A DNA stretch of 64,000 nucleotides, taken from the IMG/VR virus record IMGVR_UViG_3300046003_004339. One strand, 5' to 3'. Position numbers and translations under genes: made by a program. The DNA comes from an uncultured virus (IMG/VR IMGVR_UViG_3300046003_004339) (lineage: Duplodnaviria > Heunggongvirae > Uroviricota > Caudoviricetes). Each line of letters starts with the position of its first letter. Position 1 is the first letter of the stretch. The notes beneath the pieces were generated by a model that saw only the letters and a list, made by a program, of their open reading frames with translations, was not told the DNA's origin and did no database searches. Positions 3,700-55,369 of this stretch are shown in pieces.

Positions 3700-3773
3700 T
3701 GGTAGGAGGTGAGGGATTCGAACCCCCAACAAGCGCCTATAAAGCACCAGTTTTACCATTAAACTAACCTCCC
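3700..3773 (-). tRNA. tRNA-Ile(UAU)
   Basis: Acceptor GGGAGGT/ACCTCCT, anticodon arm GGTGC-TT TAT AG-GCGCT, TTCGAAT T-loop, encoded CCA. Confidence 0.88.
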
Positions 3774-4321: not shown

Positions 4322-5149
4322 ATGAAACACACTGAAGAGACAAGAAAAAAGATGTCAGAAAAAAGAAAAGAATGGCTGAAAGCAAATCCAGATAAACACG
4401 TTTGGAAGCGGCATTCAAAGTTTAAATCAGTTCCTTGTGAAAAAGTAAAGCAGTTTATTTTGGATAATGGAATAAGATTTCTACCAGAGTTTACACCGTT
4501 AACCGACAGAGCATTTGCTGTTGACATTGCATTTCCAGAAAAGATGGTGTGTGTTGAAGTGAACGGCAATCAACACTACGATGCTTCTGGGAAGCTAAAA
4601 CCATACTATCAAGAAAAACACGATTTATTAACTGCCACTGGTTGGAAAGTGGTTGAGATACATTATTCACTTTGCTACAACACGGAATACATTTCCAACC
4701 TAGTATCCACAATAAAAAGCATTCCAGTATTGAACGATTTTGATTATGATGTTTGGGAAAGTGGCGGGTCTACCGGTATTCGAAACCGGAATAATTCTTT
4801 AGAAGAGAATTGTGATATCCAATTTCACCATAGACCCTTGGATAAGTTTCAGTATGAAGTATATATACCAATTAACAAGAAAAAAGAGAAGAAAAAATGC
4901 TTGGATTGTGGCAAAGAAATAAGTTATTACAAAAGTAAAAGATGTAGGAGTTGTGCGTCAAAATGTCAACCAAAAGTTAAACTACCAGAAAAGGGTGAAC
5001 TTCAAAGAATGGTTTATGAAACTCCATTATGGAAACTTGGACCTCAATTTGGTTTATCAGATGTTGGACTAAAAAAGAGATGTTTGGGAATGGGAATAAT
5101 TATCCCAAACAATTCTTATCGCTTAAAAAAGCATTTCGATAAATTATAA
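4322..5149 (+). CDS. DUF559/Vsr-like putative homing endonuclease with NUMOD3-like N-terminus and Zn-ribbon/HTH C-terminus
   Basis: KHTEETRKKMSE; FAVDIAFP..VEVNGNQHY; CLDC..CRSC; LGPQFGLSDVGLKKRC. Confidence 0.75.
   Translation: MKHTEETRKKMSEKRKEWLKANPDKHVWKRHSKFKSVPCEKVKQFILDNGIRFLPEFTPLTDRAFAVDIAFPEKMVCVEVNGNQHYDASGKLKPYYQEKHDLLTATGWKVVEIHYSLCYNTEYISNLVSTIKSIPVLNDFDYDVWESGGSTGIRNRNNSLEENCDIQFHHRPLDKFQYEVYIPINKKKEKKKCLDCGKEISYYKSKRCRSCASKCQPKVKLPEKGELQRMVYETPLWKLGPQFGLSDVGLKKRCLGMGIIIPNNSYRLKKHFDKL
4762..4837 (-). tRNA. tRNA-Arg(UCU), nested antisense inside the endonuclease ORF
   Basis: GGGTCTA/TAGACCC acceptor, GTGA/TCAC D-stem, ATTCT-CT TCT AA-AGAAT, CCGGT-TTCGAAT-ACCGG, CCA. Confidence 0.88.
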
Positions 5150-9005: not shown

Positions 9006-9080
9006 TGGGAGCAGGGACGGCGTTCGAATCCGTTGTTGCACATTATGAGCGTGCCGAGTTACCACATACTCTACCCTGCC
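9006..9080 (-). tRNA. tRNA-Met(CAU), probably elongator
   Basis: GGCAGGG/CCCTGCT acceptor, GCACG-CT CAT AA-TGTGC, CCA; upstream TTGCCG-N16-TATGAT and boxA-like TGTTCTTTAGAA. Confidence 0.82.
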
Positions 9081-38880: not shown

Positions 38881-39306
38881 TCAAGCCTTGACCAGAATAT
38901 ATTTGACGCCATCCACTTCAACCACCTTGCCAGAGCAAGACGCTTGCTTGGGCTTGGTGCGAGCAAGAAACTGCTCCTGCGTCAGAAAATTGCCATCCAC
39001 AAGCCAATGCTTGGCGCCAGATGCATATTCAACTGCTGGGCCATCCTCACGATGACGCTTGCCATTCAACCACCACTCCTTGGTGCCATCCCCCCATTCA
39101 ATGGCTGGACCATCCTCACGATGCAGCTTGCCATCGTCATACCAATACTTGGTGCCATCCTCACGGTACAGCTTGCCATTCACATACCAAGACTTGCTGC
39201 CAGTCGCACGTTCGACGGCTGGGCCATCTTTGCGATGCAGCTTGCCATCGCTGTTGCGCCACTCAATCGTGTTGAAGTCGTCAACCGTTACAATATAAGT
39301 TTCCAT
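38881..39306 (-). CDS. HREDGPA repeat protein, paralog 4
   Basis: Same termini and promoter as the 183-1602 copies; 3 full and one internally deleted repeat. Confidence 0.85.
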   Translation of the reverse strand: METYIVTVDDFNTIEWRNSDGKLHRKDGPAVERATGSKSWYVNGKLYREDGTKYWYDDGKLHREDGPAIEWGDGTKEWWLNGKRHREDGPAVEYASGAKHWLVDGNFLTQEQFLARTKPKQASCSGKVVEVDGVKYILVKA

Positions 39307-42589: not shown

Positions 42590-43289
42590 AGTGAATGGGA
42601 AGTATTATGTGGGGAGTTCTGTTGGTATAGAATTTCGATGGAAGGCTCATATAAGTTCATTAAAACGCAATGTTCACAAATCCCCAAAACTTCAAGCCGC
42701 TTGGAATAAATATGGAATGGATAATTTCATTTTTATGACCATTGAAACATGTGAGCCAAATACCGATATTACACAGAGAATTGAGCAAAAATACTTGGAT
42801 ATAGCAAAAACTGAACAACTTTGTTGCTATAATACAACTTTTATCGCACATGCACCTATGCTTGGAAGAAAGCATAGTAGAAAAACTAGGAATCTAATAA
42901 GTAAAATGGTCAATAAAGGATATCTGGAAGGTAAAATGCGATGGAATAAAGGAAAAAAATTAACCGATGAACACAAAAAAAGAGTTAGCGAAGCGCGGAT
43001 ACGATTACAAATAAAACCGTCTCGCCGCCAACGCAGATTGCAGAGTATGATGGTAAGAGGAAAAAATAACTATTTTTATAAAAATCCAATGTATGGAGAA
43101 AAGAATGGAAGATATATTTCAACAGAATTTAAATTTTATAATATAAAGACGGGAGAGATATTCTTCGGGACTCGTACCGAGTTGATTAAAAAATTTAATC
43201 TATCAAGCGGAAATGTATGCAATATGATGCAAGGAAAATTAAAAAGTGTAAAAGGATGGATTATTCGTAATTCCGAATCGCCACAATAA
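42555..43289 (+). mobile_element. free-standing GIY-YIG homing endonuclease with NUMOD3-like motifs
   Basis: GIYKIVNKVNGKYYVGSS, RW..H, LQ.AWNKYG, GRKHS, GKKLTDEHKKRVSE; antisense, overlaps ligase 3-prime end by 29 nt. Confidence 0.9.
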
Positions 43290-44355
43290 CCCCGAACCGA
43301 GGCTTGCCATCGGGAGTCATATTCTGATAGCGAACAGTCGCCAGCGTTTTGCCGATATAATTTTTCTTGTTCTTTAGCAAATCAATATAAAATTGTTCGT
43401 TGCCGCGAGCATTTGCTTCAAATTCGATTCCACTGGAAGTCACTAAACGAGCACGCCCAAACATTCCAGAACGATTTCCTTTACCCTCCGTAATGTCCAA
43501 AATCTTAAATTCATCATCAACAAACTCTTTTCTCTTGAGCAAGAATTTACTACGCTTATTTTCATATATATCGTCTGTGCGAATCATCTGACCTTCTTGA
43601 CCATCCATCAGATATTCTTGATATTTAGCATCAAGTTCTTCTTGGTCATTGACCAATGCAGTATCCACCATCACAATAGAATTGTGTTTGGGGAGTAGCT
43701 TTTTGAGTTCAGCATTTCGTTTGCTGAATACCAGTTCGCTACTGGGTAAATCATAGACCCAATATTGCAACGATACTTCGCTCTTATTCAAATCTTCTTT
43801 GGTCGGTTTGGTTTGCTTGGCAAGGCTGATGATGCTGTTGAAATCGTTCTTGAACTTATCGCAGAAAATTTCCCCGTCGAAAATCAACGAGGGGTCTTCC
43901 TCGAAAAGATGCTTCAACGCATTATAAATGTGAGGCGCTGAAGCAATTTTCTTTCCCGTTCGGCTCCACATACCATCTTTGCGAACAATACACCGCATAC
44001 CATCCAACTTTGGTTGAGTATAAACTGGAAATGAAAAATCAACATCCTCATACTTCTTAGCAAGCATTGGTTCAACATATGATGTGCATTCGTCAATTTT
44101 CTTTACATCAGTTGTATAACCGGTCTTGGATTTTTTGTCCCACTTGGCAAGTGCTTCACTATATGCTTGTTCAGCAGGAGTTGTTTCATTCTTTTTACCA
44201 ATATTCTTGCCTTCGCAAACCGTGGGTTCATTTTCAATTTTTTTACCATCTTGTTGACCAGTGATGCTATAATACTTGTTGCCATCAACAAGCATTTGCC
44301 AAGTTTGAATTGCACCAGTAGATGTACGACTAAAGAGAGTAGGAAGTGTTTTCAT
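43261..44355 (-). CDS. ATP-dependent DNA ligase
   Basis: PMLA, QPKLDGMR, FDGEIF, YDLP, EGQMIR, KRSKFLLKRK, OB domain ..PRF. Confidence 0.93.
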   Translation of the reverse strand: MKTLPTLFSRTSTGAIQTWQMLVDGNKYYSITGQQDGKKIENEPTVCEGKNIGKKNETTPAEQAYSEALAKWDKKSKTGYTTDVKKIDECTSYVEPMLAKKYEDVDFSFPVYTQPKLDGMRCIVRKDGMWSRTGKKIASAPHIYNALKHLFEEDPSLIFDGEIFCDKFKNDFNSIISLAKQTKPTKEDLNKSEVSLQYWVYDLPSSELVFSKRNAELKKLLPKHNSIVMVDTALVNDQEELDAKYQEYLMDGQEGQMIRTDDIYENKRSKFLLKRKEFVDDEFKILDITEGKGNRSGMFGRARLVTSSGIEFEANARGNEQFYIDLLKNKKNYIGKTLATVRYQNMTPDGKPRFGVIVAIRNYE

Positions 44356-44386
44356 GTTTATGATAGTGACTACTTTTTATAGAAAG

Positions 44387-44656
44387 TCAAGGATTTTTTG
44401 CGGCAAGTCGTCTGAAATATTCCAGACCTTTTTCCGATTGTTCTTTCTTTGCCTTTAGGGCTCGCAGCTTTTGATAAGCCGCAGTAGCCGCATCAAAATT
44501 GTCCTCCGCATCTGCCTTGGAATAAATAATCCGTTGTTCATCTACTGCCGTGGATATCTTTTCTGTGCGAATTTTCGCCGCCTCATAGTTATCACGATGC
44601 GTGATTTTCTTTATTTCGGCTAGCTCTGCCAAGAGTTCTTGTTTCCGTTTTTTCAT
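44387..44656 (-). CDS. hypothetical coiled-coil protein
   Basis: ORF. Confidence 0.6.
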   Translation of the reverse strand: MKKRKQELLAELAEIKKITHRDNYEAAKIRTEKISTAVDEQRIIYSKADAEDNFDAATAAYQKLRALKAKKEQSEKGLEYFRRLAAKNP

Positions 44657-44657
44657 T

Positions 44658-44879
44658 TTAGATGGATTTGAGGTGAGTCACCTTGACAACATCAATAGAA
44701 AACTGCACAGAGGTTTCGTTCTCGGCGGAAACAACTTGTTTGCCAGAACGATTGAACGCCACACGACAACCCTTCGGAGTGAAGGATGCGACCTTACCAA
44801 ATGCCAGTCCCTTATATACTGGCGGATTGAAAACCACGGTGTCTCCAATGGATAATTCTTGTCCAAGTTTGTCTTTCAT
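44658..44879 (-). CDS. conserved small phage protein
   Basis: MKDKLGQELSIGDTVVF...GKV..FTPK. Confidence 0.7.
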   Translation of the reverse strand: MKDKLGQELSIGDTVVFNPPVYKGLAFGKVASFTPKGCRVAFNRSGKQVVSAENETSVQFSIDVVKVTHLKSI

Positions 44880-44926
44880 GTTTATGAGAGTGACAGGTTT
44901 TTATAAAAAGTCAAGGATTTTTTGTA

Positions 44927-45289
44927 TTAGCAAACAAGCTTTTCAAATGCTGAGATAATCGGCAGTCGGCGTTGTTTTTCTTTTTCGGCAACACAAATAT
45001 TATATCCTTTCATTATCAACTTTTCATCATCTTCGGAAATAAATTTTTTATATTCTCCCGGAAACACATAAAGTGTATCAACACTAAGCATTGAAATTAT
45101 AAACATTTCTACGCCGATCTTTGTTTTTATATTAGGATAGGAAGTAAAGGAATACTCCAAATCCCATTTGTCCATATGTTCGGTCAGTGACACATAAATG
45201 CCTTTGGCAAAACATGAGTGTTCGACTGGAGTTGGTGTTGGTGTTGGTGTTGGTGTTTTCTTTTTGAATAGATTAGTTATAAATTTCAT
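44927..45289 (-). CDS. hypothetical protein with short PT repeat
   Basis: Own promoter copy. Confidence 0.65.
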   Translation of the reverse strand: MKFITNLFKKKTPTPTPTPTPVEHSCFAKGIYVSLTEHMDKWDLEYSFTSYPNIKTKIGVEMFIISMLSVDTLYVFPGEYKKFISEDDEKLIMKGYNICVAEKEKQRRLPIISAFEKLVC

Positions 45290-45332
45290 AATATAATTAG
45301 AATGACAGGTGTTTATAAAAAGTCAAGAAGTT

Positions 45333-45614
45333 TTATCCAGCGTATTGAATTTCTTTGTTGATACTAGGCGCACCATTCTGTGCGTCCAACTGCTTGATAT
45401 ATTCCGCAATGGCTTGTTCACCAGTAGGAATCTCTTCTTTGGTGATATAGCCTTCTTTAACATAATTATATATGAAGTCATAAGACCAGAACTCATATTC
45501 ATCTCCATTACGAGAATATCGGTCACGAATTGAACCAAATCGAAGTTGGCGTCCATCCTTCAAAATAAAGGCGGAAGCAGTTGAGAAACCAAGTGCGTCA
45601 AATACGATTTTCAT
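45333..45614 (-). CDS. hypothetical protein
   Basis: Own promoter copy. Confidence 0.65.
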   Translation of the reverse strand: MKIVFDALGFSTASAFILKDGRQLRFGSIRDRYSRNGDEYEFWSYDFIYNYVKEGYITKEEIPTGEQAIAEYIKQLDAQNGAPSINKEIQYAG

Positions 45615-45647
45615 AATGTAATTAGAATGACAGATTTTTATAAAAAG

Positions 45648-45776
45648 TCAAGAAACTTTTTTCTTTTTCTTGTGCTCGGCTTCAATTTTTTTCGCAAGCC
45701 GTTTGAGTGAACGCTTGCCCAATTTCAAAAAATCGGGATGATTGCATATTGCAGAGGCGAGTTGGACAGGTTTCAT
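45648..45776 (-). CDS. small basic protein (42 aa)
   Basis: MKPVQLASAICNHPDFLKLGKR...; ATG 34 nt from TTGACT; stop in next TTGAC. Confidence 0.5.
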   Translation of the reverse strand: MKPVQLASAICNHPDFLKLGKRSLKRLAKKIEAEHKKKKKVS

Positions 45777-45806
45777 AATAGTATAGTGACAGATTTTTAT
45801 AAAAAG

Positions 45807-45995
45807 TCAAGTATTTTTCTGAGGCTGTAATTGTAGTTGCGAATATAGTCGATCATATAGTTGCAAATCTAGTTGCGAATCTAGTTGTGACTCTAGTTCC
45901 CAATATAGTTGATCATATAGTTGCGAACTTAGTTGCGAACTTAGTTGAGAACGCAGTTGATACTGTACACTTTTACCCAGTTTTATTGGTTTCAT
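45807..45995 (-). CDS. QLxx tetrad-repeat mini-protein C4
   Basis: MKPIKLGKS then QLxx repeats. Confidence 0.75.
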   Translation of the reverse strand: MKPIKLGKSVQYQLRSQLSSQLSSQLYDQLYWELESQLDSQLDLQLYDRLYSQLQLQPQKNT

Positions 45996-46233
45996 TGTGT
46001 AGTTCCCAATCTAGCTGTAAAAATATTTGATCATAAAGTTGCGTATCCACTTGATCATAAATTTGCGTATCCAGTTGATCATATAGTTTATATAGTTGAT
46101 TATATATTTGCGGATCTAGTTGATTATATAGTTGCAAACCCAGTTGCGAACTTAGTTGATTCTCTAATTGATTATATAGTTGCGAACCTAGTTGCGAATT
46201 ACATAAACTTTTACCTAGATTTATTGGTTTCAT
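45973..46233 (-). CDS. QLxx tetrad-repeat mini-protein C3
   Basis: MKPINLGKS; 23-nt overlap with C4. Confidence 0.75.
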   Translation of the reverse strand: MKPINLGKSLCNSQLGSQLYNQLENQLSSQLGLQLYNQLDPQIYNQLYKLYDQLDTQIYDQVDTQLYDQIFLQLDWELHNETNKTG

Positions 46234-46387
46234 TGCATAGTTGCGAATCTAGTTGTGACTCTAGTTCCCAATATAGTTGATCATATAGTTGCGAATATAT
46301 TTGCGAATATATTTGCGACTTTAGTTGCCAATTTAGTTGCGAACTTAGTTGCGACTTTACACTCTTACCCAGTTTTACTGATTTCAT
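46211..46387 (-). CDS. QLxx tetrad-repeat mini-protein C2 (58 aa, absent from ORF track)
   Basis: MKSVKLGKSVKSQLSSQLNWQL...QLCNETNKSR. Confidence 0.75.
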   Translation of the reverse strand: MKSVKLGKSVKSQLSSQLNWQLKSQIYSQIYSQLYDQLYWELESQLDSQLCNETNKSR

Positions 46388-46577
46388 TGTGCAGTTGATT
46401 ATCCAGTGGCCTGTATAGTTGCCAATCTAGTTGCAAATCTAGTTGCAAATATAGTTGCGACTCTAGTTGCGAACTTAGTTGAGTATCTAGTTGCAAACGT
46501 AGTTGCGACTCTAGTCGCGAACCTAGTTGATAACTCAGTTGATACTTTACACTTTTACCCAGTTTTACTGGTTGCAT
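46365..46577 (-). CDS. QLxx tetrad-repeat mini-protein C1
   Basis: MQPVKLGKS. Confidence 0.75.
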   Translation of the reverse strand: MQPVKLGKSVKYQLSYQLGSRLESQLRLQLDTQLSSQLESQLYLQLDLQLDWQLYRPLDNQLHNEISKTG

Positions 46578-46581
46578 TGCA

Positions 46582-46920
46582 TCAATCTCTCACAGCATTC
46601 ATTCTGGCTGTAAATGGATCATATTCTTGCTGAGAACCAAATTCATATGTTCCTGCTGGCAGAGTGATAGAATCATGTCTATCAGAGTGTAAGCAGCGAA
46701 TTGTAGTTTCAACTGTATTTTCCATGAAAAGAGTGCCCTTGTCATCTTCATAAAAATCTACTCCTGTTGGCATATCAACCACATGATGATTGCCAGTAGT
46801 TTCGCTGTCGGCTACAATCATATAGCCATTGCTATTACGATTCTTTTTCTTTGCATTGGATGGCAGTTTGCTGGTAAATACCATGCATTCGCCGTGGAGG
46901 ATAACTTCGTTGTTTTTCAT
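46582..46920 (-). CDS. His-rich small beta protein of the type I recall beside DUF6745 genes
   Basis: HGE, ADSETTGNHH, H.DRHD.I.LP.GTY...QQEYDP...VRD. Confidence 0.75.
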   Translation of the reverse strand: MKNNEVILHGECMVFTSKLPSNAKKKNRNSNGYMIVADSETTGNHHVVDMPTGVDFYEDDKGTLFMENTVETTIRCLHSDRHDSITLPAGTYEFGSQQEYDPFTARMNAVRD

Positions 46921-46987
46921 ATATTTTATTATTATTATTGCTGTGTTTTATACTATGGTTGAATTTTTCAAAAAGTCAAATCTATTC

Positions 46988-47215
46988 TCAATTTTCATTG
47001 TTATAAAGTTGAGATTCAAGTTCTTGAGATAGTTGATCATATATTTGCGAATTTAGTTGCCAACATAATTGCGAACTTAGTTGCAAATATAGTTGCGACT
47101 CTAGGTGCGAATATAGTTGCCCATGTAGTTGCCGAAGAAGTTGCCTATCTAGTTGAGTATTTAGTTGCCAATATACTTGATCATATAAATTTTTACCCAG
47201 ATTTATTGGCTTCAT
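46988..47215 (-). CDS. QLxx tetrad-repeat mini-protein B4
   Basis: MKPINLGKN. Confidence 0.75.
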   Translation of the reverse strand: MKPINLGKNLYDQVYWQLNTQLDRQLLRQLHGQLYSHLESQLYLQLSSQLCWQLNSQIYDQLSQELESQLYNNEN

Positions 47216-47441
47216 TGTGTAGTTGCGACTCTAGTTGATCATCTAGTTGCCAACGTAGTTGGTCATCTAGTTGCGAATATAGTTGCGAATTTAGTTGCGA
47301 ATATAGTTGCGAATATAGTTGCGAACTTAGTTGCTTATATAGTTGAGTATCTAGTTGCCAATATTGTTGAATATTTAGTTTCCTATCTATTTGCGAAACT
47401 AGTTGATACTGTACACTCTTACCCAGATTTATTGGCTTCAT
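47193..47441 (-). CDS. QLxx tetrad-repeat mini-protein B3
   Basis: MKPINLGKS. Confidence 0.75.
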   Translation of the reverse strand: MKPINLGKSVQYQLVSQIDRKLNIQQYWQLDTQLYKQLSSQLYSQLYSQLNSQLYSQLDDQLRWQLDDQLESQLHNEANKSG

Positions 47442-47616
47442 TGTGTAGTTGATCATCTAGTTGCGAATTTAGTTGCCTGTATAGTTGAGTATATAGTTGC
47501 GAACGTAGTTGAAAATATAGTGGCCAACTTAGTTGAGAACTTAGTTGCTTATATTGCGAATCTAGTTGCGAACGTAGTTGATCATATAAATTTTTACCCA
47601 GATTTATTGGCTTCAT
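47419..47616 (-). CDS. QLxx tetrad-repeat mini-protein B2
   Basis: MKPINLGKN. Confidence 0.75.
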   Translation of the reverse strand: MKPINLGKNLYDQLRSQLDSQYKQLSSQLSWPLYFQLRSQLYTQLYRQLNSQLDDQLHNEANKSG

Positions 47617-47830
47617 TGTGTAGTTGTACATTTAGTTGCGAACGTAGTTGAGTATCTAGTTCCCAATATAGTTGCGAACTTAGTTGCGAACTTAGTTCCC
47701 GATATAGTTGCGAACGTAGTTGCGAATATAGTTGCGAATATAGTTGAGAACTTAGTCGCAACTCTAGTTGCGAAAGTATTTTCCTATCTAGTTGCGACTG
47801 TACACTCTTACCTAATTTTACTGATTTCAC
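47594..47830 (-). CDS. QLxx tetrad-repeat mini-protein B1
   Basis: GTGA overlap with the DUF6745-like stop. Confidence 0.75.
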   Translation of the reverse strand: MKSVKLGKSVQSQLDRKILSQLELRLSSQLYSQLYSQLRSQLYRELSSQLSSQLYWELDTQLRSQLNVQLHNEANKSG

Positions 47831-48714
47831 GCAATATTGACAATTTTCATTGTTTTACCACCAAATCTCTCAGCAATAGCCTGAACCAAATTACGAGACT
47901 GCGGAGAAACTGCTTCCACATGCCAGATGCCAGTAGTTTGATTGAGCATCTTGACATATGGCTGATAATCAAGTCCTTCAAACAGAACTTTCATATCCCA
48001 CAGTTCATATTGAGACTCATGCCAATAAGGATGTTCATTTGCGTCATAATTTTCATATGAATCAATCTTTTTACCCAAATGCAACATACGTTCAACGCCA
48101 AACTTTCTTACAAATTCAGCCTTGACATCAGCATTCTTTTCGGTGCTGAAAAATGAAATATCAAGTTGCTCTGAATCAGTTGTAACAAGTTTTTCCGGCA
48201 CACGCACACCATTCAGATACCACATGCCCCAGCCGTCGCTATATTCAATAGCCATGACCGATTCATTATGCAATCTGCCAGATTCATTTACAGTCAAACG
48301 AATTGGTCGCTCGGATACCAAAACATATTCTTCATATGGAAACCACCAATGTAGATTTTTAGCCTCTTGCATCCATTCTGCAAGCAACTCGGAGTCTTCT
48401 TTGCTATATTTGACTCCAATCATTTCTCCAAATGTGCAAAATGCTTTCCAGCCAATCCATTGCTGGCCCGAAAAATAATCCGACAGTCCAGATTCATCGC
48501 CACACAGTTTTCTATAATCAACGATGGCTTTGGGAGAAGGAAAATAAAGAAATTTTGGATTTTTGAGTCCAATTCTATTATAGAATTTGGTGATAATTTT
48601 CTCAGCAACATCGTGGTTGATTGGTTCAATAGATCGTCCAATGTTCAGCATTTCGTTATAGAACTTGCTCAGTTGCTCAGTTTGATCGTCGGTCAATTTT
48701 TGTATTGTGCTCAT
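47827..48714 (-). CDS. DUF6745-like protein
   Basis: IQKLT..Q, F.SP, GQ.W..W..F, WWFPYE....SERP, GRLH.....AIEYSDGW..W.LNGVRVP, EKNA.V......K.G.ER, VKM...TTG..H.E.V.P. Confidence 0.8.
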   Translation of the reverse strand: MSTIQKLTDDQTEQLSKFYNEMLNIGRSIEPINHDVAEKIITKFYNRIGLKNPKFLYFPSPKAIVDYRKLCGDESGLSDYFSGQQWIGWKAFCTFGEMIGVKYSKEDSELLAEWMQEAKNLHWWFPYEEYVLVSERPIRLTVNESGRLHNESVMAIEYSDGWGMWYLNGVRVPEKLVTTDSEQLDISFFSTEKNADVKAEFVRKFGVERMLHLGKKIDSYENYDANEHPYWHESQYELWDMKVLFEGLDYQPYVKMLNQTTGIWHVEAVSPQSRNLVQAIAERFGGKTMKIVNIA

Positions 48715-48758
48715 ATTTTAAGTTTTGTAATGTTATTATGAATGTTGATGAATAAAAG

Positions 48759-48980
48759 TCAAGATGTTTTTATGTTTTGTTCCAATTGAATACTCAGTTG
48801 CAAATATAGTTGATTATCTAGTTGATTATATAGTTGCGAATTTAGTTGTGAATATAGTGGCGAAGTTAGTTGGTTATTTAGTTGTAAAACTAGTTGCGAA
48901 CGTAGTCGATAACATAGTTGCGAATCTAGTTGCGAATCTAGTTGAGTATGTAGTTTCTTACCTAATTTTATCGGTTTCAT
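48759..48980 (-). CDS. QLxx tetrad-repeat mini-protein A3
   Basis: MKPIKLGKK. Confidence 0.75.
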   Translation of the reverse strand: MKPIKLGKKLHTQLDSQLDSQLCYRLRSQLVLQLNNQLTSPLYSQLNSQLYNQLDNQLYLQLSIQLEQNIKTS

Positions 48981-49206
48981 TGCGTAGTTGATCATCTAGT
49001 TGCCAACGTAGTTGGTCATGTAGTTGCCTATCTAGTTGCGAATATAGTTGCGAATATAGTTGCAAACGCAGTTGCGAACGTAGTTGAGTATCTAGTTGCC
49101 AAAGTAGTTGCGAATCTAGTTGCGAACATAGTTGAGTATCTAGTTGCGAACATAGTTGCCCATGTAGTTGATACTTTATACTTTTACCTAATTTTATTGG
49201 TTTCAT
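48958..49206 (-). CDS. QLxx tetrad-repeat mini-protein A2
   Basis: MKPIKLGKS. Confidence 0.75.
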   Translation of the reverse strand: MKPIKLGKSIKYQLHGQLCSQLDTQLCSQLDSQLLWQLDTQLRSQLRLQLYSQLYSQLDRQLHDQLRWQLDDQLRNETDKIR

Positions 49207-49420
49207 TGTGTAGTTGATCATCTAGTTGCCAACGTAGTTGGTCATCTAGTTGCCAAAGTAGTTGCGAATCTAGTTGAAAACTTAGTCGAGTATCTAGTTG
49301 CGAATTTAGTTGCGAATTTAGTTGAGTATGTAGTCGGGTATCTAGTTGAGTATATAGTTGACCATATAGTTGACCATATAGTTGCAATTCTATATTTTTA
49401 CCTAATTTTATTGGTTTCAT
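49184..49420 (-). CDS. QLxx tetrad-repeat mini-protein A1
   Basis: MKPIKLGKN; ATGA overlap with upstream gene. Confidence 0.75.
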   Translation of the reverse strand: MKPIKLGKNIELQLYGQLYGQLYTQLDTRLHTQLNSQLNSQLDTRLSFQLDSQLLWQLDDQLRWQLDDQLHNETNKIR

Positions 49421-49743
49421 TTCTTTTCTTTTGGAAGTTCATAAACTTTACTTACAGCAGCAACCACATCTTTTAGTGTGCGATACAATGTAGCATGCAA
49501 TGGAGTTTGCTGAACTTTTGCACGACTGTTATATACATTTTGATATACATTCACAACTGCTTCAACAAATTCATTTTCATATGAACAAAGTGAAACATAT
49601 TGATATTGGTTTTCGTGCTTGCGAACAAGATAAAACAAGCCAGTTACAGGCGTGCCAAGATCTTCATAATAGTTATTTTTGTCGCGTGCTCCTTGTTTGA
49701 ATCCAAGAGTTTCAAGTGATGTTTTCAAAGTTTCGTTTTTCAT
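49417..49743 (-). CDS. hypothetical protein heading repeat block A
   Basis: Own promoter copy. Confidence 0.65.
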   Translation of the reverse strand: MKNETLKTSLETLGFKQGARDKNNYYEDLGTPVTGLFYLVRKHENQYQYVSLCSYENEFVEAVVNVYQNVYNSRAKVQQTPLHATLYRTLKDVVAAVSKVYELPKEKK

Positions 49744-50016
49744 TTGAACTCCACAATGGCTGCTTTTTATAGAAAGTCAAGCAGATAGTTATTATGGAAT
49801 GCAAAAGTTCCACGTTGTGTTTGGACGCAACCACGAAGAAGTTTTATTGGTTTGGGCATTGCGTTCTACCATATCTGGCAAGCCAATCAACATCTTTTTA
49901 TATACATTTGCCAAGTTTGAGTATATAAACAAGCGAAAGATGGAAAATCATCTAAAATCTATACATTCATATATGGTGAATACCAACGATAACTACGACT
50001 TGATGCACTAGTGTTT

Positions 50017-50187
50017 CTAAGCCGTTTCTATGGCTATATAATGGTTTTGACTAAAGTTTAGGGTTACTCCATCTATTCTAACAGCATGACCATCTATTTT
50101 CACGCTTTGAGCATCTACTCTAAATTCTAGCAGTGGCTCACTCTGACCACCTAGATATATTTTTATAATGTATGTTCGATCAAACAT
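50017..50187 (-). CDS. hypothetical protein (56 aa)
   Basis: MFDRTYIIKIYLGG; upstream ATATTTAT. Confidence 0.5.
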   Translation of the reverse strand: MFDRTYIIKIYLGGQSEPLLEFRVDAQSVKIDGHAVRIDGVTLNFSQNHYIAIETA

Positions 50188-50224
50188 GATATTATATAAA
50201 TATATGTTTGTTTTATTATAATAA

Positions 50225-51118
50225 TCAAAAACAACTGTTTAGGTCACTGTCTGGTATATAATAATTGTTTATGTCACGTAGATTTATATTATTGTTACAA
50301 TCGTATATATTCACAACGCCATCTTCAATGATGGCATAATGATTGGATTGAGTGTCCAAGTTGTAACTAACACTCAAATACTCTGGGTCAAGTTTATTTG
50401 GTTGATCCAACAGTTTGTAATGTTCAGTCACATCTTGTTTCACAAAGCCACCATGTTTGTGTTGTACCAACACTTGCGGAACACGATGAATGCTGTGACC
50501 AACTATTTGATTTATACCATTGACTGGCCCAAAGGTGTTCCAATCAACCCAGTTGATGCCACCATATTGTTGATATCCTCCACGCTCCCAACCAGCACCA
50601 AACAATTCAACATTGTTGTTTAGATTTGCTTGTTCTAGTGCAATAGTTGTTTCTTGCTGTAACACATGATCAAAAAATTCAAGTTTTGAAGCAAACTTTG
50701 TTTCATCAAAGTTCAATGAATATTTTTTCCAAAGTTTGTTGGTCAATCCAGCATGACTAAACACATGATTTTGATCAATGTGATATACACGAAACTTTGC
50801 TTTATCTTCATTGGTCAATACATCATTTATAGCAACACTTTTATAGGGAGTATAGCCCGAGCACCTAAAATGTATATTTTCAGGCCAAATATATGAAGTG
50901 CAATGATTGCCCATAAGTGGAACAATTTTTGGATTATGCAGTATTTTCTCTTTGAGCCAAACCGCAGTGGCCCTAGCATATTCTACTGCGTGTGCACCTT
51001 CACCATGATTGTCAAAATAATCACCTGTGAGCACAAGTTTATCATGTGGCACTTTATCTATAATAGATTGTGCTCGTATGATACGATTGTGAATATCTGA
51101 AATACATAGGGTGCGCAT
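50225..51118 (-). CDS. calcineurin-like metallophosphoesterase
   Basis: SDIH, GDYFD, GNH, SHAG, QIVGHS. Confidence 0.88.
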   Translation of the reverse strand: MRTLCISDIHNRIIRAQSIIDKVPHDKLVLTGDYFDNHGEGAHAVEYARATAVWLKEKILHNPKIVPLMGNHCTSYIWPENIHFRCSGYTPYKSVAINDVLTNEDKAKFRVYHIDQNHVFSHAGLTNKLWKKYSLNFDETKFASKLEFFDHVLQQETTIALEQANLNNNVELFGAGWERGGYQQYGGINWVDWNTFGPVNGINQIVGHSIHRVPQVLVQHKHGGFVKQDVTEHYKLLDQPNKLDPEYLSVSYNLDTQSNHYAIIEDGVVNIYDCNNNINLRDINNYYIPDSDLNSCF

Positions 51119-51138
51119 CTGTTGACTATAGACTGCAC

Positions 51139-51516
51139 CTAAACATTGTCAATCTTTTTCTTGTTGCACAAATATTTGCTATTCATGAAATTGTCAGCAT
51201 CCATGCTTGCTTTCTTTTTGTTGCAAGCATTGCAACATACCACAAAGTTGTTGTGATCAAATGCATCGCCGCCAACGGACTTTGCTTTGTAATGATCTAC
51301 AGTGGCTTGATCATTTCGGCGCAAAGATTTATATTTCAATTCTTTTTCGCAATAAAAACAAACCAACTTGTTTTTCTTTTCCAGTTCTTCTTTGAGAAAA
51401 TCATTGCGTGATGTTGCCCAACGCTTGCGCTCCATTTGAGCATACAAGCGTTGCAGCAACACAAGATTAGCATAACTGCTAATATGCACATCATCCATAT
51501 GGATGAAATGTTTCAT
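51139..51516 (-). CDS. HNH endonuclease
   Basis: CFYC, ATVDH, GG, N.VVCCNACNKKK. Confidence 0.85.
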   Translation of the reverse strand: MKHFIHMDDVHISSYANLVLLQRLYAQMERKRWATSRNDFLKEELEKKNKLVCFYCEKELKYKSLRRNDQATVDHYKAKSVGGDAFDHNNFVVCCNACNKKKASMDADNFMNSKYLCNKKKIDNV

Positions 51517-51848
51517 TTATCCACGTCATCTCTGTCCCATTCATAACCGTCTTCACCATAACACTTTTCACCTTTGTCAAGTGAATCGCACAGCAATTGC
51601 TTTTTCTTTGGAAGATTACCATCTGTTCTTGCTTTGGGAGATTCCCAAACAATCTTGACGCTATCCATATGCTTTTCTGGCATATAAACCAGTCGTATGC
51701 CATTTTGAGCAAAAAGATTCACAAGTTCATCCAGTTTCATACCCTTCCACTTTGACAGATTATCAGCGCCGCCAGCTTGTATCACAGCGTTGCGCATCAT
51801 AAGATAGAAGTCATCTTGACACAGTTTTACTTTGATATCGTTGTTCAT
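51513..51848 (-). CDS. hypothetical protein
   Basis: Coupled ORF. Confidence 0.6.
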   Translation of the reverse strand: MNNDIKVKLCQDDFYLMMRNAVIQAGGADNLSKWKGMKLDELVNLFAQNGIRLVYMPEKHMDSVKIVWESPKARTDGNLPKKKQLLCDSLDKGEKCYGEDGYEWDRDDVDK

Positions 51849-51853
51849 AAATT

Positions 51854-52645
51854 TTAAGTCCAGAAAAAATCACGATTGGTCACAATCCAAACCAAATATT
51901 TGGTATCTTCTTTGTTGATGAGCACTTCCAAACGAGTGTTTTCAGCATAATCAACTTCAAATACACCAGTCATCGTTTCTTCGTCTGGGTATGAATCATC
52001 ATGTTGCTTTTGCAAATCGGGACGACGATTCTTCACATAGTCATAACAATCCTTCAACTCATTGGCAAACTTTGCATGATCTTCTCCAGATGCTTCATAG
52101 TCAGTGTTATCAAAACATTTTTCACCTTCTATAAAATGAACCACCATAGCAAAATTGAGTTCAGTAATAAGATGTGTCTTGTCACTCCAACAATCTGGAA
52201 TTTGATTCTTGAGCCATTTCTGACGTGGATTTAGTTTATATTCAAGCCAATCATATGCACGACTGATCTTGCATTTCAAGCTAAAGCAGTTTTCACGCAG
52301 CCAGTATTGAACAGGAAAGCGATATTGTAAAAATGTGTCAATAGCATCACGTTCAGACTTGCGTCCAAGAATGTTATGCCCATCACTTATGATGGCATCC
52401 AAATACCAGAAATATAGATATGTGCGCTTGCTGCGTGGCATATCCATATATTCATCTGCGTTCTTTACAATCCGATATCTTGTAAATGGATTGTTGTCTT
52501 CCAACCAATAGCAGAAGTTGTAATACATATGACGAAATGTAGTTGTGTCTGTATCTGGCATTTTTACAGCACGATTATGCTTGCTGAAAATTTCAGCGGA
52601 TTCTTTCATAGAATCAGTAAGTTCTTTTTCGTTAGAATTGTTCAT
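51854..52645 (-). CDS. conserved phage hypothetical protein
   Basis: IP..WSDK..LI...F, DTKYL..IV..R...WT. Confidence 0.7.
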   Translation of the reverse strand: MNNSNEKELTDSMKESAEIFSKHNRAVKMPDTDTTTFRHMYYNFCYWLEDNNPFTRYRIVKNADEYMDMPRSKRTYLYFWYLDAIISDGHNILGRKSERDAIDTFLQYRFPVQYWLRENCFSLKCKISRAYDWLEYKLNPRQKWLKNQIPDCWSDKTHLITELNFAMVVHFIEGEKCFDNTDYEASGEDHAKFANELKDCYDYVKNRRPDLQKQHDDSYPDEETMTGVFEVDYAENTRLEVLINKEDTKYLVWIVTNRDFFWT

Positions 52646-54613: not shown

Positions 54614-55369
54614 TTAAATTTGTATTATCGACCCAGTTCCCAACCAACCTGAGCCAGAATTTGTGTATAAAATGCTTCCTGTTGCATAAGATTCAAAACT
54701 GTCTATGGATGGTGCCGGAAATTCAAGAGAAATTATTGACCCCGTGCCTAACCACCCCGATCCCAAATTTGTGTATAAAATGCTTCCGGTTGGATAAGAT
54801 TCAAAATCGTCAAAAGAATCCGATGGAGGAATTGGAGTTGCGGTAGGTGTTGGTGTTGGCGTGGCCGTTGGTGTTGGCGTGGCCGTTGGTGTCGGCGTTG
54901 GGGTAGCCGTTGGTGTCGGCGTTGGTGTTGGTGTAAGCGTCGGTGTAGCCGTTGGAGTGTATGACGGCGTAGGCGTCAGCGTGGCCGTTGGTGTAGGTGT
55001 CGGAGTGTATGACGGCGTAGGCGTTGGGGTAGCCGTCGGAGTTGGTTCTGGAATAATTGCCGGTATAACCTCGGATTTGAACGATTGATAGCTAAATAAA
55101 GACCAACCGACCGAGTTGTTGCCTTCTCCGACTTTTATCCAAGTTTCATTGGGTTGCGCAAATGTTATCAATTCTTCTTTCAGTGTATGATACCATATTT
55201 TATTTTTATATTTGGTCGCAAAGAACTTTTTTGTTGGATATATCTGTTGGGATATTCCATCAAAGTTTAAATAAAATTCATATCCAACTCTTGCAAATAT
55301 ACTATTTTTCTTGGCGGATATCAATCCTTCCGGACTAGATTGGTCCAATTGATTAGGTATATTGCTCAT
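54614..55369 (-). CDS. putative virion accessory protein: shared N-domain, PT linker, duplicated 35-aa C-terminal module
   Basis: [24 protein letters not shown] twice. Confidence 0.75.

Follow-up and report, generated by a model that had tools for sequence, protein, structure and literature searches.

Tandem arrays of overlapping mini-genes from an uncatalogued phage family and their probable link to DUF6745

Eleven tiny genes lie back to back, with neighbours overlapping end to start, in a 64,000-nucleotide (nt) stretch of DNA from an uncultured virus of the Caudoviricetes (IMG/VR record IMGVR_UViG_3300046003_004339). The source of this stretch, which we refer to as the window, appears to be a large lake-water phage. 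At each junction inside a block of these genes, the same 23 bases encode the tail of one small protein and the head of the next, which raises the question of whether the junction is a device for linking the translation of adjacent genes, or a by-product of the way in which such genes multiply. We consider it likely that the region holds eleven tandemly amplified, separately translated mini-genes for single-helix proteins, which belong to an uncatalogued phage family and probably act together with DUF6745, a protein encoded in their midst. The overlap itself is real but mechanistically ordinary.

Every gene between 43 and 52 kb is on the minus strand. The mini-genes form three blocks, termed C (49420-48759, three genes), B (47830-46988, four) and A (46577-45807, four), and these are separated by the DUF6745 gene and by a gene for a 112-amino-acid (aa) protein, with a 108-aa gene preceding the array. 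From the upstream end, the features are the following, with match strengths given as expectation values (E):

49417..49743, minus: 108-aa gene heading the block C operon; no Pfam or PHROG family
49184..49420, minus: mini-gene C1, 78 aa, head MKPIKLGK, 15 tetrads, tail HNETNKIR; family-profile E 4.9e-20
48958..49206, minus: mini-gene C2, 82 aa; junction with C1 at 49184-49206
48759..48980, minus: mini-gene C3, 73 aa, end of block C, with its own tail EQNIKTS; junction with C2 at 48958-48980
47827..48714, minus: DUF6745 gene, 295 aa; Pfam PF20530, E 3.1e-16
47594..47830, minus: mini-gene B1, 78 aa, GTG start, GTGA overlap with the DUF6745 gene; by translation
47419..47616, minus: mini-gene B2, 65 aa; junction with B1 at 47594-47616
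47193..47441, minus: mini-gene B3, 82 aa; junction with B2 at 47419-47441
46988..47215, minus: mini-gene B4, 75 aa, end of block B; junction with B3 at 47193-47215
46582..46920, minus: 112-aa gene with a SETTGNHH motif; homologues adjoin DUF6745
46365..46577, minus: mini-gene A1, 70 aa, head MQPVKLGK; starts 4 nt past the stop of the 112-aa gene
46211..46387, minus: mini-gene A2, 58 aa; junction with A1 at 46365-46387
45973..46233, minus: mini-gene A3, 86 aa; junction with A2 at 46211-46233
45807..45995, minus: mini-gene A4, 62 aa, end of block A; junction with A3 at 45973-45995

The mini-proteins range from 58 to 86 aa. Each unit consists of a head, MKPIKLGK or a close variant, followed by 10-16 tetrads of the form x-x-Q-L (12-nt units in the DNA) and a stop, and ten units start with ATG and one with GTG. 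All units have co-directional stop/start overlap or near-contact with the gene ahead. This takes the form of eight overlaps of 23 nt within blocks, whereas the block-first genes have an ATGA overlap at 49417-49420 (block C, where the ATG of C1 overlaps the TGA of the 108-aa gene), a GTGA overlap at 47827-47830 (block B) and a 4-nt gap at 46577 (block A).

The junction pattern CAATGAANNCANTAAANNTRGGTAA was searched with up to 3 mismatches across the whole 64-kb window, with 100 shuffles as control. It has 11 matches, all on the minus strand, while the shuffles average 0.02 matches and none of the 100 reaches 11. Eight matches are the within-block junctions, whose stops end at 45973, 46211, 46365, 47193, 47419, 47594, 48958 and 49184, and the other three (46555, 47808 and 49398) are the starts of the block-first genes. 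Seven of the eight junctions have no mismatch. The junction at 48958 has one mismatch to CAATGAANNCANTAAANNTRGGTAA, yet fits the wording of a previous sequence-only reading of this DNA, which had proposed a 25-nt pattern (allowing GAT at this site) for all eight junctions; all eight do fit it.

Translation also bears out, at 8 of 8 junctions, that the same 23 bases, from the ATG through the end of the TAA, serve as tail (NE-x-x-K-x-G/R-stop) and as the next head (MKPIxLGK) in the +1 frame, with the overlap exactly 23 nt each time. The tails are NETNKIR, NETDKIR, NEANKSG (three times), NEISKTG, NETNKSR and NETNKTG, each followed by a stop, and the eight non-terminal genes conform to (H/C/R)-N-E-x-x-K-x-(G/R). 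The tail consensus proposed before therefore stands in its NE...K-x-G/R-stop frame but was too narrow inside it, since the third place may also be I and the fourth D or S. Similarly, MKPIxLGK describes most heads, and MKSV also occurs; the heads read at junctions are MKPIKLG, MKPINLG and MKSVKLG. Junction sequences are block-specific, and block B carries three identical ones.

Between head and tail, Tandem Repeats Finder reports a 12-nt periodicity through the bodies, with unit TAGTTGCGAAnn on the plus strand. The sequence-only reading took junction plus variable tract as the repeating unit. A repeating unit is indeed present and is the whole gene, but its tract is a run of 10-16 homologous 12-nt x-x-Q-L units, not a unique spacer, and the "repeat-spacer-like" layout holds as an analogy only. 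We rejected a CRISPR-like array on the same grounds, since both elements are coding: the would-be spacers are runs of homologous tetrads, and the would-be repeat is the junction; no search for cas genes was made. The tiled bodies comprise 151 tetrads and 90 distinct 12-mers, 64 of which are singletons. When the 90 distinct 12-mers are joined in a minimum spanning tree, 15 single steps are silent and 54 are replacements, and the changes per unit position are 21, 9, 8, 9, 19, 14, 2, 8, 2, 12, 1 and 11. This pattern fits tetrads of common ancestry that multiplied through successive duplications, in which Q-L is under constraint while x1 and x2 can change almost freely. Residues Y, D, S, R, N and W abound at these two positions. 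A diversity-generating retroelement target was considered and rejected, as the CAA/CTA adenines are near-invariant and all bases vary at unit positions 1, 2, 4, 5 and 6; a reverse transcriptase gene was not searched for.

Codon use in the tetrads is nearly uniform, and could suggest that the DNA rather than the peptide is the functional entity. Among 125 x-x-Q-L units, Gln is CAA in 124 and Leu is CTA in 111, whereas in 13 other window genes CAA accounts for 134 of 180 codons for Gln and CTA for 42 of 401 for Leu. Our first impression of DNA-level selection on CAA/CTA was set aside, because the spanning-tree changes are spread over all positions with 15 silent to 54 replacement steps. The window's three tRNA genes, all on the minus strand, are Ile-TAT (3700-3773), Arg-TCT (4762-4837) and Met-CAT (9006-9080), and none of them is a tRNA-Leu for the over-used CTA codon.

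A stronger form of this idea is that the tract is non-coding, a field of 12-nt DNA or RNA repeats with core CAACTA that is bound by some factor, and that the open reading frames (ORFs) are by-products of a repeat without stops. The core hexamer is near-invariant at silent sites too, with CTA at only 10% of Leu codons elsewhere. Open frames by themselves are no proof of coding here, and the repeats leave further frames open on both strands. We nonetheless regard this explanation as highly improbable. In a related, complete 230-kb phage record (G001), homologous genes have no DNA repeat and yet retain head, tail and the period-4 pattern of Leu. Tandem Repeats Finder reports 0 rows for the related locus L001, and other cores encode the same kind of peptide, namely CAATTA in locus L002 and Q-V types in L040, L041 and L067. 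Silent changes do occur, and starts, stops and unit lengths are regular. We judge the units to be real genes because of this comparative evidence, and not because of open frames alone.

As a family, the mini-proteins have a profile consisting of a short basic head, Leu at every fourth residue and a C-terminal L-x-N-E motif. A profile of 49 family members (profile A2), searched against the six-frame translation of the window, picks exactly the 11 units (E <=6.8e-15), with the next best match at E 0.17. AlphaFold2 (AF2), given the family alignment, models C1 as a single helix over residues 6-77 with a predicted local distance difference test score (pLDDT) of 94.6, and the whole mini-protein is predicted to be one long alpha-helix. 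Neither Pfam (six window mini-proteins) nor PHROGs (five), with 19 relatives scanned in addition, gave anything above threshold. A word-based search with C1 against 5.8 billion proteins returned six candidates, none significant; tblastn of a mini-protein against a phage GenBank collection found no match, although the low-complexity filter may hide one; and a search of the literature on phage tetrapeptide repeats, small genes and jumbo-phage tandem arrays found nothing on the family. The ESM Atlas does contain clusters of 56-146 similar proteins, 65-73 aa long and all viral. On comparative sequence evidence, the mini-proteins are a real, uncatalogued and widespread phage family.

If the junction were a conserved device, its length should be recognizable in other phages. 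A DUF6745 alignment (A3) searched against IMG/VR gave 99 relatives, and 80 loci were kept for a scan with the mini-gene profile. Matches occur at 23 of the 80 loci, in 9 cases within an ORF of at least 275 aa (the repeat in cis) and in 14 cases within short ORFs, two of which (L055 and L058) are weak opposite-strand matches only. Arrays are present in at least 10 phage contigs, and compare as follows:

Window: 11 genes in three blocks; overlap 23 nt, eight times
L034: 4 genes; overlaps of 4 and 4 nt (ATGA)
L037: 8 genes; overlap 29 nt, seven times
L038: 6 genes, the last truncated; overlap 14 nt, five times; near-identical units alternate as ABABA
L040: 5 genes; overlaps of 17 and 17 nt, a 74-nt gap, then 17 nt
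L041: 4 genes; overlap 17 nt, three times
L067: 4 genes; overlap 11 nt, three times
L047: 3 genes; 14 and 1 nt
L001: 2 genes; overlap 32 nt
G001: about 34 genes; overlaps of 4-59 nt

The largest array, that of G001, is an unbroken run of about 34 mini-genes, each 54-80 aa long and none repetitive, with MKPIK- or MKSVK-type heads, Leu, Ile or Val at every fourth residue and L-x-N-E tails. At its 33 junctions, 29 overlap, 24 of these in the +1 frame, and the AATGAA core is found at 13. L001 and L002, two IMG/VR records with relatives of the DUF6745 protein, lie at the other extreme. In L001 the two overlapping mini-genes lack a DNA repeat, yet each fourth residue is again Leu, Ile or Val, and L002 has a single x-x-Q-L mini-gene downstream of DUF6745 that is coded CAA-TTA instead of CAA-CTA. 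Stand-alone single copies with the head-body-tail layout occur at L002:5941-6168 and L015:1733-1963, the latter ending QLLNETE-stop. The window's own junction pattern has 0 matches in IMG/VR and 3 in metagenome contigs, and both of those examined (L016 and L017) are chance matches in unrelated sequence.

Overlap length is thus not conserved in homologous arrays, being 4, 11, 14, 17, 29 or 32 nt and 4-59 nt in G001, which is an outcome that the sequence-only reading had itself named as refuting its proposal. What recurs across arrays is only the pair of tail codons AAT-GAA that holds the next ATG. Inside arrays, overlaps are uniform (23 nt eight times, 29 seven times, 14 five times, 17 and 11 three times each), with exceptions such as the L040 gap, L047 and G001. 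A junction that is uniform within an array and free between phages is the expected outcome of whole-unit amplification by unequal recombination, and in this respect the proposal that duplicating a unit yields a new gene already joined to its neighbour holds up well. Arrays would change size at two levels, through slippage or unequal exchange of 12-nt tetrads, and through unequal recombination of whole gene units of ~200-250 nt. Contigs from four lake-water runs break in the repeat tracts, with joints from 47627 to 49137 in three runs and from 49216 back to 48995 in one. Such joints could reflect units that have recombined or duplicated, paralogues from co-occurring relatives, or the route of the assembly through repeats of 31-36 nt.

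The recurrent AAT-GAA codons suggest how the overlap arises. The L-x-N-E tail is also present in G001 (LKNEGYRS, LLNNEKR, ILNEAN), L037 (NELQQSTIK), L038 (KDEID, NNETD) and L040 (NELTK), and the core AATGAAACCGAT is common to the window and L038. The stand-alone L015 copy ends in this motif with no gene overlapping it, and N-E is therefore a protein motif. Heads in the family open with M-K or M-N, and an ATG-A is embedded in AAT-GAA, which places the next start inside the N-E codons. The conserved tail codons would thereby supply the ATG of ATG-AAA (M-K), the start of the next gene, and the upstream frame would continue by chance to the first out-of-frame stop in that head (GGT-AAA read as G-GTA-A / TAA), so that the residues following N-E would be passengers. 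Of the 23 columns in the window overlap, 7 are variable, and head codon position 2 (tail position 3) is never among them. Each of the seven changes a tail residue, whereas the head stays the same with AAA/AAG, CCA/CCG and TTA/CTG/CTA; three of the four third-position changes are silent there. From these sequences, the tail beyond N-E looks like a passenger. The junction is best read as incidental: a start codon lies within a C-terminal motif, and whole-gene amplification would have spread the resulting overlap.

Gene overlap with possible translational coupling is a textbook arrangement, and the array resembles it in that same-strand genes have their starts inside or beside the upstream stop, with the block-first units exactly ATGA and GTGA. 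It differs in that internal overlaps here are 23 nt (4-59 nt in relatives) rather than 1 or 4 nt, and in that the Shine-Dalgarno (SD) element is mostly absent in this phage. SD-like 4-mers are found upstream of 5 of 57 long window ORFs and 0 of 11 mini-genes; SD-independent initiation is the norm in the window, since so few long ORFs have such an element. RNA structure in 83-nt windows around the starts is not unusual (z -2.5 to +1.3), and a coupling of the RNA-unfolding type therefore lacks support. An ATG or GTG is retained in 11 of 11 units, including the block-first ones behind unrelated genes.

Judging from sequence, translational coupling across the junctions is plausible. The most likely arrangement is separate initiation at each ATG with loose coupling at most. 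Each gene would be started at its own ATG, independently of an SD element, on an A-rich and unstructured mRNA, and ribosomes finishing the upstream cistron 20 nt downstream could feed the next start.

A more demanding alternative is that the overlap itself has been selected, such that termination-reinitiation sets fixed ratios of the proteins of a block, together with the DUF6745 or 108-aa protein ahead, for assembly of a hetero-oligomer of helices. Every unit overlaps its upstream neighbour or lies 4 nt from it, with ATGA and GTGA among the overlaps, no mini-gene start is preceded by an SD-like sequence, 29 of 33 G001 junctions overlap, and one published analysis associates short overlaps with subunits of heteromeric complexes (PMC10666635). 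We find this alternative rather unlikely. Overlap length is free between arrays, from 4 to 59 nt, and 0-nt, 1-nt or gapped junctions occur in G001, L040 and L047; SD-less starts are usual here (52 of 57 long ORFs) and so do not point to coupling; and stand-alone mini-genes exist. The same source reports a steep loss of re-initiation with distance in reporter work, and describes overlaps of 4 and 1 nt as the predominant ones (PMC10666635), and a review calls longer overlaps rarer and their mechanism unsettled (PMC12548453).

The +1 relation between tail and head led the sequence-only reading to suggest polyproteins made by a frameshift at the junction. In the extreme version, the blocks are polyproteins produced by programmed +1 frameshifting within the 23 nt, and the ATGs are incidental. 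The arithmetic is sound, as 8 of 8 junctions, and 24 of 29 overlapping G001 junctions, place the head in the +1 frame relative to the tail, and the tails end AGG or GGG before TAA, which loosely resembles known +1 sites. The rest of that suggestion finds no support. Starts are retained throughout, including in three units behind unrelated genes, and no single shift rule could bridge the ATGA of L034, the TAATG of L047, the 74-nt gap of L040 and the in-frame TAA-ATG of G001. Varied overlaps between arrays and stand-alone copies argue for separate initiation and against frameshift polyproteins, no SD-like stimulator lies upstream, and none of 28 inspected library proteins is a chain of head-body-tail units. 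Polyproteins thus have very little to recommend them, and a programmed +1 site was set aside as a candidate on account of the independent starts, the missing upstream element and a frame relation and spacing that are not conserved across arrays.

If the mini-genes are separately translated, the question becomes what their products do, and the best indication comes from their neighbour. The 295-aa protein belongs to DUF6745 (59.7 bits against a cut-off of 27) and has 240 homologues at E <=1e-5, many of which carry an internal period-4 repeat that the window protein lacks. In an AF2 model of the window protein (pLDDT 94.7, predicted template modelling score 0.83), residues 71-82 are a short stretch without helix or strand except for one bridge residue. 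At exactly this stretch, close homologues bear repeats of the types x-x-Q-L (P0211, P0212), x-x-Q-V (P0234), x-x-x-V (P0223) and x-x-A-V (P0221).

The family profile leads to the same proteins from the other direction. Against 1.84 billion representatives it gives 295 matches at E <=1e-3, 59 of them at E <=1e-10. Of the best 150, eight are mini-proteins of 63-83 aa and the remaining 142 exceed 100 aa. In the long matches, a stretch of 25-75 period-4 tetrads separates an N-domain from a C-terminal domain, and in 45 of the top 60 Pfam identifies DUF6745 (E <=1e-5), with the repeat between the N-domain and the DUF6745 domain. For the other 15, six that we inspected (P0008, P0010, P0036, P0044, P0045 and P0059) have the same layout by eye, and three belong to other families (Flg_new, Ras and DUF4347). 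These cis-repeat DUF6745 proteins (such as P0001-P0004, P0211, P0212 and P0234) are mostly viral, and resemble the mini-proteins in having x-x-Q-L or x-x-Q-V tetrads with Y, W, D, S, R and N at the free positions. They differ in holding their 25-75 tetrads in one chain, whereas the window has separate genes of 10-16 tetrads, each with its own head and tail, next to a repeat-less DUF6745. In five further phage records (5 of 5), all 31 profile matches are inside the DUF6745 locus (4 of 4 in a complete 297-kb record), and the window and L038 have in common the GTGA in which the DUF6745 stop overlaps the start of the first mini-gene (GCGTGAAATC).

This distribution of the repeat in cis and in trans suggests, by sequence comparison, a partnership between mini-proteins and DUF6745. 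The mini-proteins would act with the adjacent DUF6745 module, supplying in trans a hypervariable period-4 helix that many DUF6745 proteins hold in cis. One could go further and suppose that the arrays are a fast-evolving phage repertoire of interchangeable specificity helices for DUF6745, either built in or drawn from a chain of small genes; we think this quite unlikely as it stands. Were it true, the two exposed positions per turn, with their many Y, W, D, S, R and N residues, would resemble binding surfaces, and 12-nt tetrads within overlapping units of ~220 nt would allow variants to be made, resized and reshuffled by simple unequal recombination, each pre-wired for translation.

Several observations weigh against our overall interpretation. 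Most viral DUF6745 loci (57 of 80) have no profile match, and the association is therefore not general. Low-complexity repeats are involved, so the mini-proteins could have come to resemble the DUF6745 linker by convergence and not through homology. AF2 often models sequences of this kind as a single helix with high pLDDT, and such a model is little proof. The large G001 array is 10-20 kb from DUF6745. L035, L036, L037 and L040 have, by eye, a hairpin and then a T-run between DUF6745 and the first mini-gene, and co-translation with DUF6745 is therefore not conserved. The 23-nt overlap exceeds the 1- and 4-nt overlaps for which coupling is demonstrated (PMC10666635), and among 24 listed runs with this DNA none is on record as RNA. 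Finally, the asymmetry between head and tail amounts to seven columns only, and is not seen in L037 (4/4/4) or L038.

Searches on DUF6745 itself offered little further guidance. The Pfam model does not match any of the six mini-proteins scanned, and the resemblance is only to the repeat linker, outside the Pfam-matched stretch. LHNE occurs in both the mini-protein tail and the DUF6745 core, possibly by coincidence. No clear solved relative emerged, as a Foldseek search against the PDB gave nothing at E <=1e-3 and a wide VIA-align search gave a best Z of 4.0, and our literature search found no paper naming DUF6745 or PF20530. ORFs of 69-nt (23-aa) repeats, with a unit of roughly LHRxDGPAIEWxNGxKxWYxxGK, are present on the minus strand at 183-1602 and 38881-39306. 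They have sub-threshold Pfam matches to DUF6745 positions 55-93 (best E 5.2e-6, 26.3 bits against the cut-off of 27), and the DUF6745 core LH-x-E-x-G-x-A-x-EY-x-DGW-x-x-Y-LNG may be one such 23-aa repeat unit.

The 112-aa protein has a weak match to PHROG 27831 only (E 1.8e-4). Proteins of its type, of ~110 aa with the SETTGNHH motif and an EYDPF...VRD end, adjoin DUF6745 in phages and in metagenome-assembled genomes (MAGs) of distant phyla, including a Lyngbya MAG and a Marinacidobacterales MAG. The homologues located beside DUF6745 are:

L001, 4537-4920
L002, 4626-4979
L034, 5620-5952
L020, 3066-3419
L024, 3276-3596

DUF6745 and the 112-aa protein look like a conserved two-gene module. A single Marinacidobacterales MAG (L022-L028 and L031) has eight DUF6745 matches, of which five, equal in match length, are scattered over a 5.9-Mb contig. 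The copy inspected (L024) bears x-x-S-V repeats in cis, and is among phage-like genes with two long ORFs resembling DNA methyltransferases. These copies may be repeated prophages or a mobile element.

The surroundings of the array also carry a recurrent promoter-like motif of 22 nt, ATACTTGACTTTTTATAAAAAT (for example at 45793..45814), which with up to 3 mismatches has seven window copies, all on the minus strand, where 0 are expected:

6486, minus: ATACTTGACTTTTTATAAAAAT copy
14481, minus: ATACTTGACTTTTTATAAAAAT copy
14614, minus: ATACTTGACTTTTTATAAAAAT copy
44373, minus: ATACTTGACTTTTTATAAAAAT copy
44897, minus: ATACTTGACTTTTTATAAAAAT copy
45634, minus: ATACTTGACTTTTTATAAAAAT copy
45793, minus: ATACTTGACTTTTTATAAAAAT copy

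The last stop of each block is in or just upstream of a TTGACT promoter-like hexamer. The TGA of A4 is within the TTGACT of the recurring motif, the TTGACT sites after block B (46979) and block C (48762) are weaker, and the TGA of C3 is within such a hexamer. Several lake-water contigs branch at ATACTTGACTTTTTATAAAAAT copies, and there are loose ends at 45817/45818 and 49763/49781. By analogy with promoter-early stem-loop (PeSL) cassettes, the ATACTTGACTTTTTATAAAAAT copies may be early promoters that double as recombination sites. PeSL cassettes mediate modular shuffling in hyperplastic regions of T4-type phages, according to Arbiol et al. 2010 (PMC2839356). The account given there matches the window in its small, non-essential-looking genes, a plastic region, a short border sequence usable for recombination and a recurring sigma-70-like promoter motif (seven copies here). 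It differs in that the border here is coding, in two frames and inside an operon, in that no coding-strand stem-loop terminator is found in 44000-51000, and in that gene gain and loss at the border are deduced here from array comparison rather than from near-identical genomes. Five terminator-like sites are present in 44000-51000, all on the other strand, against a shuffle expectation of 4.0.

Two sites near the block ends resemble altered units. B4 ends ...AAC-AAT-GAA-AAT-TGA (NNEN-stop; 46988-47002, minus), a truncated junction copy (AACAATGAAAATTGA) in which AATGAA is kept and the rest lost, as if the next unit had been removed by the promoter region that follows. Directly after block A, a 42-aa ORF (45648-45776, minus) has an MKPVQL start resembling the mini-gene head and continues with ASAICNHPDFLKLGK..., without a tetrad body or a Pfam match; it may be a diverged or remodelled mini-gene unit.

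The window looks like a portion of a large phage, and encodes a nicotinamide phosphoribosyltransferase, a thymidylate synthase, helicases, an ATP-dependent ligase and an HNH protein in addition to its three tRNAs. Words of the array region are present at 78-90% in 20 lake-water metagenome runs from 20 studies, and megablast of 43000-52000 against the phage GenBank collection found no match. Further coding tandem repeats are a tract at 54832-55039 (ORF 54614-55369, minus) with periods of 18, 24, 42 and 48 nt and consensus GTTGGCGTAGCCGTTGGTGTCGGC on the plus strand, and a hexanucleotide repeat at 45227-45257 (ORF 44927-45289, minus), TGGTGT in 5.2 copies, which gives (TP)5 near the N-terminus of a 120-aa protein.

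The junction by itself is no surprise, and what is new is the protein family and its link to the DUF6745 neighbour. A conserved N-E motif whose AAT-GAA codons double as the next start explains why whole-gene amplification would keep succeeding. The occurrence of the repeat in cis in some DUF6745 proteins, and in trans beside a repeat-less one, gives a testable way into a domain often met in large phages. Should the helices prove to be variable binding modules, these arrays would be a simple natural system of protein diversity.

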